DNA of 64,000 nucleotides from the sequence record PP925844.1. One strand, 5' to 3'. Both the position numbers and the translations under genes were made by a program. The stretch comes from Escherichia phage Elenatom. Under the pieces are notes generated by a model. That model was not told where the DNA came from. It searched no databases and saw only the letters and a list, made by a program, of their open reading frames with translations. This document shows positions 25,187-25,577 of this stretch, in pieces. How positions within the stretch are numbered: the first letter of the stretch is position 1; each line of letters begins with the position of its first letter.

Positions 25187-25423
25187 TCAAATGCAAGTAG
25201 TAATTACTCCAGTAGTGCTTATGCAGGTATTACCCATTTGCACACCTAAAGATCCATTTGTATTCACATGAAGATTATCATCAATTTTAACTGATATTTT
25301 ACCATTAGTGTGAATAACAGTGCTAGATTCAATCACAGGTTGAGTATCATTTTCAACACTAACAAATGGAACTGCTGCTAATGCAACTAAACAAACTGCT
25401 AAGCATCCCATAACAATTTTCAT
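25187..25423 (-). CDS. small secreted protein
   Basis: signal peptide from internal ATG (MKIVMGCLAV...); the track ORF start at 25480 lies inside the promoter. Confidence 0.5.
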   Translation of the reverse strand: MKIVMGCLAVCLVALAAVPFVSVENDTQPVIESSTVIHTNGKISVKIDDNLHVNTNGSLGVQMGNTCISTTGVITTCI

Positions 25424-25460
25424 TTTATTCTCCAAATCCGTATCAGTAGTTGATAGTTGT

Positions 25461-25490
25461 ATAGTACCATGGAAGAACATTCTTGTAAAC
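25461..25490 (-). promoter_or_regulatory. sigma70-type early promoter inside a repeated cassette
   Basis: minus strand GTTTAC-N18-TACTAT; cassette repeated near 51690-51772. Confidence 0.55.
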
Positions 25491-25577
25491 AGTTTTGTGA
25501 AAATTTTTTAGGGAATTCTAAATGTCCAGAATCATCTGTTTTTCATAAGTATAGATTTATATTACTTGTATGAAAAA

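Follow-up and report, generated by a model that had tools for sequence, protein, structure and literature searches.

An early promoter-leader cassette of T4 type in Escherichia phage Elenatom and the gene variation at its downstream edge

The closest described counterparts of the sequences reported here are the promoter-early-stem-loop (PeSL) cassettes of T4-type phages. As described in the available parts of Arbiol et al. 2010 (PMC2839356), PeSLs were first recognized in RB49/phi1, where they are composed of an AT-rich tract, a -35 and a -10 element, a stem-loop, a Shine-Dalgarno (SD) sequence and an ATG, and where mini-circles arising from crossovers between the -10 and the SD/ATG were demonstrated. 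The available text of Comeau, Arbiol and Krisch 2014 (PMC4122927) reports PeSLs in T4/PST with the consensus TTTACW-N17-TAYWAT and with stem-loops located just upstream, near indels, and ties them to the earlier observations of Repoila et al. on the internal-protein locus. The early promoters of T4 are of the UP/-35/TGn/-10 type, with additional regions of consensus (Hinton 2010, PMC2988021). For the RegB endoribonuclease acting with ribosomal protein S1, the accessible sections of Durand et al. 2006 (PMC1702504) give an 11-nt consensus, GGAGRAYARAA, which must be single-stranded and is mostly located in early-gene translation initiation regions.

We analysed a 64,000-nt stretch of Escherichia phage Elenatom (PP925844.1; hereafter, the window), a Tequatrovirus and a T4-type phage, whose best match is Escherichia phage Pinarejo (~99% identity) and which is 94-98% identical to T4. 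A 3-kb query round the finding matched 556 phage records, nearly all of them Tequatrovirus and with Pinarejo as the best match, and Pinarejo 1-64100 aligned with the whole window at ~99% identity except for a gap of ~1 kb near 47.3 kb. In the alignment to T4, identity ranged over 87-98%, with 17 larger indels or replacements. Every gene near the cassettes is encoded on the minus strand, so the motifs named in an initial annotation of the window are correct when taken on the reverse complement. As a separate observation, ~1 kb with an nrdC.4-like gene is absent from the window at ~47261-47299 (minus strand) relative to both Pinarejo and T4. The junction (47271-47282) is a 12-nt overlap with a AAATCATT core, and the deletion leaves a 12-codon stub ORF (MTRNEYIKSLTK and a stop) directly behind the early promoter at 47357.

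Compared with the PeSLs, as far as the available parts of PMC2839356 and PMC4122927 describe them, the Elenatom cassettes are alike in composition, with an AT-rich tract, a sigma-70-like early promoter that has a stem-loop beside or inside it, and, as the 3' end, the SD with its start codon. They are also alike in being present in many copies in regions rich in small non-essential ORFs, and several gene indels or replacements between close relatives end in or beside them; homology is strongest here from the -10 to the SD/ATG, the interval to which the published crossovers were mapped. On the same partial view of the sources, they differ in that the stem-loop of the 25.4 kb copy is not adjoining but ~85 nt upstream, in that several junctions are short ATG-proximal microhomologies without a second cassette, and in that the nrdC.8/nrdC.10 pair shows no natural excision product. 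Because they fit the PeSL description and are orthologous to T4 regions, the cassettes are known biology, the PeSL concept having already been published for T4/PST. The likeness to PeSLs proposed in the initial annotation is supported by composition, T4 orthology and gene variation on the 3' side of several cassettes, but mobility is not shown; the copies are at fixed orthologous positions.

Anatomy and T4 orthology of the cassettes

A promoter-leader repeat of about 80 nt had been proposed at 25.4 and 51.7 kb, and self-alignment recovered it as 97 nt at 84.5% identity (BLAST, E 9e-26) between copy A (25400-25520) and copy B (51686-51805). Between the two, a 3-nt indel (TACTATACAACTATCAACT[ACT]GATACGGATTTGGAGAATAAAATGAAAA) is the sole difference in the interval that runs from the -10 to ATGAAAA. 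The two leaders match at all 24 aligned positions, whereas 8 of 18 positions differ in the -35/-10 spacer, and the alignment of the copies places the 3' end of the conserved unit at the SD and the downstream start codon. The initial annotation had allowed that the copies might be no more similar than generic sigma-70 promoters. All pairs among the 19 minus-strand GTTTAC-type promoters in the window were scored by local alignment of the 45 nt downstream of the -10, and the A/B pair reached 37 against a mean of 9.4 (sd 3.7), so the likeness far exceeds the generic promoter consensus; the generic core common to all pairs has a mean identity of 0.58.

The 19-mer TACTATACAACTATCAACT, which covers the -10 and leader, occurs exactly three times in the window (25448-25466, 50289-50307 and 51728-51746), with 0.05 expected from shuffles. 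The second occurrence confirms the shorter version of the -10 and leader noted at 50.3 kb (copy C), whose leader joins GGAGGAACAGAAAATG directly. With 3 mismatches the 19-mer is found once, at 5898-5916, in the copy described as rearranged at 5.9 kb (copy D), which has indeed lost its -35; in place of GTTTAC stands a copy of the leader in inverted orientation. As read-through RNA, the inverted repeat of copy D has a predicted folding energy of -21.1 kcal/mol (z = -5.8). The 13-bp repeat is kept in T4 and T2.

The claim that the promoter adjoins a UUCG-loop terminator at two loci also proved correct (51819-51800 and 55390-55373), and both are among the strongest terminator-like sites of that region; another UUCG-loop terminator is located at ~14.72-14.74 kb. 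Stem-loops beside or inside the promoter comprise the terminators adjoining copy B and the 55.3 kb copy, the hairpin in copy D and the palindromic spacer in copy B. The terminator after gene 43, upstream of copy A, is conserved in T4 and T2 and is annotated as a rho-independent terminator in phage ASO78A.

Table 1 Positions of the cassette copies, their parts and neighbouring features in the window
Feature	Position	Strand	Remarks
Stub ORF, 11 codons (MENLPKVLLLF, stop)	5832..5867	-	frameshifted remnant of the 89-aa gene intact in T2
Copy D, rearranged, upstream of cef	5865..5960	-	UP tract, no GTTTAC, extended -10 (5911-5919), leader, GGAGAATAAAA (5867-5877), ATG (5865-5867)
Copy D, 13-bp perfect inverted repeat	5892..5934	.	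arms 5892-5904 and 5922-5934, on either side of the -10; the leader itself forms one arm
Weaker member upstream of sp	19205..19267	-	GTTTAC, TACTAT, ATAAACATAAACTACTGAGGAG
78-aa ORF behind copy A	25187..25423	-	phrog_4189; signal-peptide-like N-terminus; predicted to be driven by copy A
Copy A, whole	25520 to 25400	-	UP tract, GTTTAC, AAGAATGTTCTTCCA, TGGTACTAT, ACAACTATCAACTACTGATACGGATTT, GGAGAATAAAATG, AAAATT; same parts in copy B
Copy A, SD, exact match to the RegB/S1 site GGAGAATAAAA	25423..25433	-	
Copy A, shared leader ACAACTATCAACTACTGATACGGATTT	25434..25460	-	predicted transcription start ~7 nt past the -10
Copy A, extended -10 TGGTACTAT	25461..25469	-	
Copy A, -35 GTTTAC	25485..25490	-	
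Copy A, A/T-rich UP-like tract CCCTAAAAAATTTTCACAAAACT	25491..25515	-	
Stem-loop terminator after gene 43	25577..25594	-	AGGGACCTCCGGGTCCCT and T run; ~85 nt upstream of the copy A -35
Copy C, short version	50271..50331	-	GTTTAC, TGGTACTAT, ACAACTATCAACTAC, GGAGGAACAGAAAATG of the nrdC.8 homologue
Copy B, leader, RegB/S1-type SD (51706-51716) and ATG (51704-51706)	51704..51740	-	nrdC.10 homologue, ORF 50738-51706
Copy B, extended -10 TGGTACTAT	51741..51749	-	
Copy B, 14-nt perfect palindrome CATAAAGCTTTATG	51748..51761	-	within the -35/-10 spacer; self-complementary match
Copy B, -35 GTTTAC	51765..51770	-	
Copy B, UUCG-loop terminator after nrdC.11	51800..51819	-	adjoins the promoter
Weaker member upstream of the mobD.5 homologue	55299..55390	-	adjoining UUCG terminator 55373-55390

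Copies A, B and C share GTTTAC-N15-TGGTACTAT, and copy D lacks the -35 but retains the TGn and -10. An A/T-rich UP element, AAAATTTTTTCACAAAAC, is located upstream of copies A, B and D, and the TTTTCACAAAAC motif of the copy A tract is also found in copy B, in the promoter at 39765, and in T4 e.8 and motA. The cassettes agree with the early-promoter pattern of a GTTTAC/TTTACA -35 and, after a spacer of 17 nt, a -10 that reads TAnnAT and is extended by TGn. This UP/-35/TGn/-10 architecture is that of the T4 early promoters (Hinton 2010, PMC2988021), with the -10 and leader as in the T4 motA early promoter region; the cassettes differ in forming a sub-family with a common transcribed leader and translation initiation region, beyond the promoter consensus.

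Copy A is 94.4% identical to T4 27107-27000 (upstream of imm.1) and copy B is 98.3% identical to T4 55419-55300 (upstream of nrdC.10), and copies C and D are orthologues of the T4 regions upstream of nrdC.8 and in the motB-to-cef gap, respectively. The same leader is found at T4 motA, e.8, trna.4 and denV, further T4 copies that lie outside the window or at other loci, and the T4 motA promoter-leader is 100% identical to the sequence heading motA in IMG/VR contigs that have the exact 19-mer. In a related genome annotation, the 25.4 kb site is labelled "similar to phage T4 early promoter". Based on the T4 orthology, this label and Hinton's promoter description, we read the cassettes as T4 early promoters plus 5' UTR and translation start, with predicted promoter activity and transcription starts. 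No T4 start-site map naming these genes was found in the literature, T4 transcriptome reports included, and the T4 records AF158101 and NC_000866, in the versions consulted, contain no annotated promoter features.

The leader is also retained in other genera, namely Mosigvirus (RB69) and Gelderlandvirus (STML-198). In Salmonella phage STML-198 (1190-1250), an nrdC.10-type -10, the leader and GGAGAATAAAA are kept at ~90% identity; the Gelderlandvirus cassette heads a 59-aa ORF and is without a recognisable GTTTAC -35 in STML-198.

Several other repeats were seen in the window. Two early promoters on the minus strand (2429-2460 and 47328-47359, with the -35 at 2458 and 47357), located upstream of a gene 39 homologue and an nrdC.4/5-type gene, respectively, are 97% identical in the -35 to -10 core, and their spacer carries a small stem-loop (CCACAAGGATGTGG) that recalls the PeSLs of RB49 type, in which -35 and -10 are separated by the stem-loop. 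Near-identical, terminator-like GGGCCGAAGCCC stem-loops are present at three intergenic sites (28360-28391, 30530-30561 and 38880-38911), and a 219-nt insertion relative to T4 (28386-28604) begins beside the first of them. In the 61.1/61.2 region, a 49-nt direct repeat (17927-17975 and 18288-18336, 96% identity) extends over the start codons and 5' ends of two adjoining small genes, which suggests a tandem gene duplication. A 63-nt direct repeat (44205-44267 and 44418-44480, 84% identity, spaced 213 nt) was found around gene 49/pin, in a stretch where T4 has different sequence.

Gene variation downstream of the cassettes

The proteins encoded behind the cassettes are mutually unrelated (phrog_4189, 1250 and 2274), and the exact 19-mer TACTATACAACTATCAACT heads at least nine different ORFs in IMG/VR T4-like contigs. 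Among relatives, the slot between gene 43 and imm.1 has three alleles. In T4 the cassette is joined straight to imm.1, without the 78-aa ORF of the window, and this indel is flanked by an 8-nt direct repeat, ATGAAAAT, that is the start of both ORFs. The body of the 78-aa ORF was detected in 321 phage records and the cassette itself in 545. T2 has in this slot an unrelated 83-aa ORF with an nrdC.8-type spacer and leader (31 records), and with such a spacer and leader on an unrelated ORF the T2 allele appears to be a chimera, with its left junction inside the cassette.

In the motB-to-cef slot, an intact 89-aa gene follows the cassette in T2, and its interior was detected in 261 records; T4 and the window have only the stub. 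In both, the stub consists of ATGGAAAA joined out of frame to the last ~55 nt of the 89-aa gene, and the junction is a ATGGAAAA/ATGTAAAA repeat (7/8). Between e and denV, T4 has ipIII, ipII and a second early promoter with CCTATCAACTAC in its leader. In the window, at 62119-62180, ipIII, ipII and the T4 denV early promoter are absent, and the fusion of an ipIII-type promoter to denV falls within the leader, where ACTTG meets GAGGGATAAAATG. The T-even internal-protein locus of Repoila et al. 1994, as cited in the available text of PMC4122927, is alike in the absence of ipIII-ipII between e and denV and in a junction within the early-promoter leader; it differs in lying outside the coordinates of the present finding. 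In several Tequatroviruses, motA is separated from its cassette by ~340 nt to which a hypothetical protein is annotated (e.g., MZ234038 57353-57806), to all appearance another presence/absence gene at a cassette 3' edge. Flanked genes vary among relatives at several slots, but nrdC.9/nrdC.10 were never deleted in the 685 matching records.

Our preferred reading, to which as a whole we give a probability of roughly 0.85, is that the cassette is an immediate-early transcription and translation start module that is also a RegB/S1 target and a recombination site for ORF exchange. The module comprises an A/T-rich UP tract, a GTTTAC -35, the extended -10 TGGTACTAT, a 5' UTR of ~30 nt that is C/A-rich and unstructured, the SD GGAGAAUAAAA and an AUG, and it is mostly placed just past the intrinsic terminator that closes the unit before it. 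It would be fired at once on infection by host sigma-70 RNA polymerase, and the SD region would be an optimal target for the phage RegB endoribonuclease with ribosomal protein S1, by which the early mRNA would be inactivated. As one module stands before many unrelated small genes, its copies offer 20-95 bp of homology and A-rich ATG-proximal microhomology, through which recombination could insert, delete or swap downstream ORFs, in keeping with the PeSL model in print.

A possible but doubtful alternative gives the copies no special role in shuffling: they would be regulatory sites fixed in place, whose likeness is due only to selection on promoter strength, on a leader that binds S1 and is free of structure, and on an SD that RegB can cut. 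Nearby gene gain and loss would then be ordinary microhomology deletion of a kind possible at any A-rich translation start. The copies do occupy identical orthologous positions in T4, T2 and the window, and the retained leader in Mosigvirus and Gelderlandvirus agrees with fixed sites. Orthologous copies (94-98% identity) resemble each other more than paralogous ones do (~85%), which gives no hint of recent homogenisation. Ordinary deletion is likewise favoured by the junctions at the 78-aa ORF indel and the cef-upstream stub, which are ATG-proximal microhomologies of only 7-8 nt, not cassette-to-cassette crossovers, and by the lack of a significant enrichment of indels in the cassettes, which are touched by only 3 of the 17 window-vs-T4 indels (permutation p = 0.15); 6 other indels involve homing-endonuclease genes.

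A recombination hybrid of B and C, with loss of nrdC.10 and nrdC.9, was absent from all 685 matching records (50,697 phage records searched; a hybrid was counted when a record covered at least 80% of the predicted hybrid junction), which again favours fixed sites. Recombination between A and B would lose ~26 kb including essential replication genes, so these two are not usable for excision. What fixed sites account for less well are the T2 chimera between gene 43 and imm.1, best explained by in-cassette exchange, the ipIII/denV fusion in the leader between two early promoters, and the variation of at least four slots exactly at the cassette 3' edge; the RB49/phi1 mini-circles, demonstrated to come from such crossovers according to the available text of PMC2839356, point the same way. 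Given the fixed positions, indel counts, absent B/C hybrid and microhomology junctions, the evidence supports the view of the cassette as a recombination-prone regulatory module for ORF exchange, not a self-moving element.

The predicted RegB/S1 site, the leader RNA and the remaining alternatives

T4 motA is a classic RegB target. In the window, GGAGRAYARAA has 3 exact matches against 0.35 expected, all of which read GGAGAATAAAA and are the SDs of copies A, B and D. In a near-identical genome, the equivalent of ~59043-59504 of the window is annotated as a regB homologue, and the homologue in the window has its own early promoter and a GGAGAATAACA SD. Compared with the sites in the available text of Durand et al. 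2006 (PMC1702504), the cassette SD GGAGAAUAAAA equals the T4 optimum and likewise lies in an unstructured early-gene translation initiation region; the coincidence of the SD with the RegB optimum follows from published work. Copy C differs in having GGAGGAACAGA, and the GGAG of T4 nrdC.8 is reported in that text as only moderately cut. RegB cleavage at these particular SDs of Elenatom is predicted from their match to the T4 sites.

A leader of ~25 nt is common to motA, imm.1, nrdC.10, nrdC.8, e.8, the cef-upstream copy, trna.4 and denV. It is rather unlikely that this invariant, initially transcribed region (ACAACTATCAACTAC...) is a functional element that defines a co-regulated subclass of early genes. 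If it were, the leader could, for instance, determine stimulation by Alt, promoter escape or the way in which early transcription is shut off, which is still unexplained, and would do more than persist through recombination as a passive, unstructured spacer. The conservation may come from selection against structure in the leader, from exchange inside the cassettes or from a function so far unrecognised. In the available text of the PeSL and RegB papers we found no discussion of so strict a conservation over ~25 nt, and this is the only opening for novelty, though an unlikely one.

The leader RNA folds no better than shuffles (z = +0.27 for copy A, and +0.88, -0.54 and +0.38), and an Rfam search of the whole window gave no match. 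A leader without structure fits a single-stranded site for S1/RegB and ribosome loading and speaks against a structured regulatory RNA. We therefore rejected a riboswitch, attenuator or thermosensor, and consider it very unlikely that the leader is such a cis-regulatory RNA or that an RNA or protein besides RegB/S1 acts on it in trans. The mismatch-free leader of copies A and B beside their diverged spacer, together with the conservation across genera, would suit both possibilities, but a hairpin is found only in the cef-upstream copy, where it lies upstream of the predicted start; against a protein or RNA ligand, sequence alone says nothing.

That the repeats are remnants of whole gene and promoter duplications, with paralogues downstream, is highly improbable. 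The copies take in the first codons (ATGAAAA), and the T4 cef-upstream and e.8 copies both have an extra AAAATAA insert and start with ATGGA, as expected of duplicated genes, but the similarity ends 7-10 nt from the ATG. We rejected common descent of the downstream genes because their proteins fall in different PHROG families and their pairwise alignments are negligible, with no meaningful similarity between T2_009 and e.8 (score 25) or T2_046 and the 78-aa ORF (score 23). Least probable of all is an autonomous or non-autonomous transposable element (MITE-like) inserting upstream of genes: short units of ~100 nt do occur at 5-9 places per record, but in the repeat families and alignments the ends of the copies have neither terminal inverted repeats nor target-site duplications, the copies have one orientation throughout and are in register with the downstream start codon, their positions are orthologous between phages, and their similarity fades gradually into the generic promoter consensus.

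Annotation and biological meaning

In Pinarejo (PP925831), the nrdC.10 homologue CDS0100 (51676-52761; window ~50738-51823) is drawn through its own promoter and terminator; in the window, this ORF starts at 51706 at the latest. The same record has short plus-strand ORFs across two cassettes, CDS0009 (5817-5963; window 5817-5963) and CDS0050 (25486-25590; window 25469-25573). The extension of CDS0100, CDS0009 and CDS0050 are probably annotation artefacts. The cassettes are thus of value for annotation, as several database records run ORFs through the promoters or call spurious plus-strand ORFs across them, and they may be of use in picking safe insertion sites for the engineering of T4-like phages.

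Elenatom, a T4 relative sequenced only recently, illustrates the arrangement cleanly and adds no new principle. In our preferred reading, one regulatory module would serve three purposes, as a very strong early promoter, a RegB-timed signal for mRNA inactivation and a portable docking point, at which small accessory genes would be added, lost or exchanged with their expression signals left intact.
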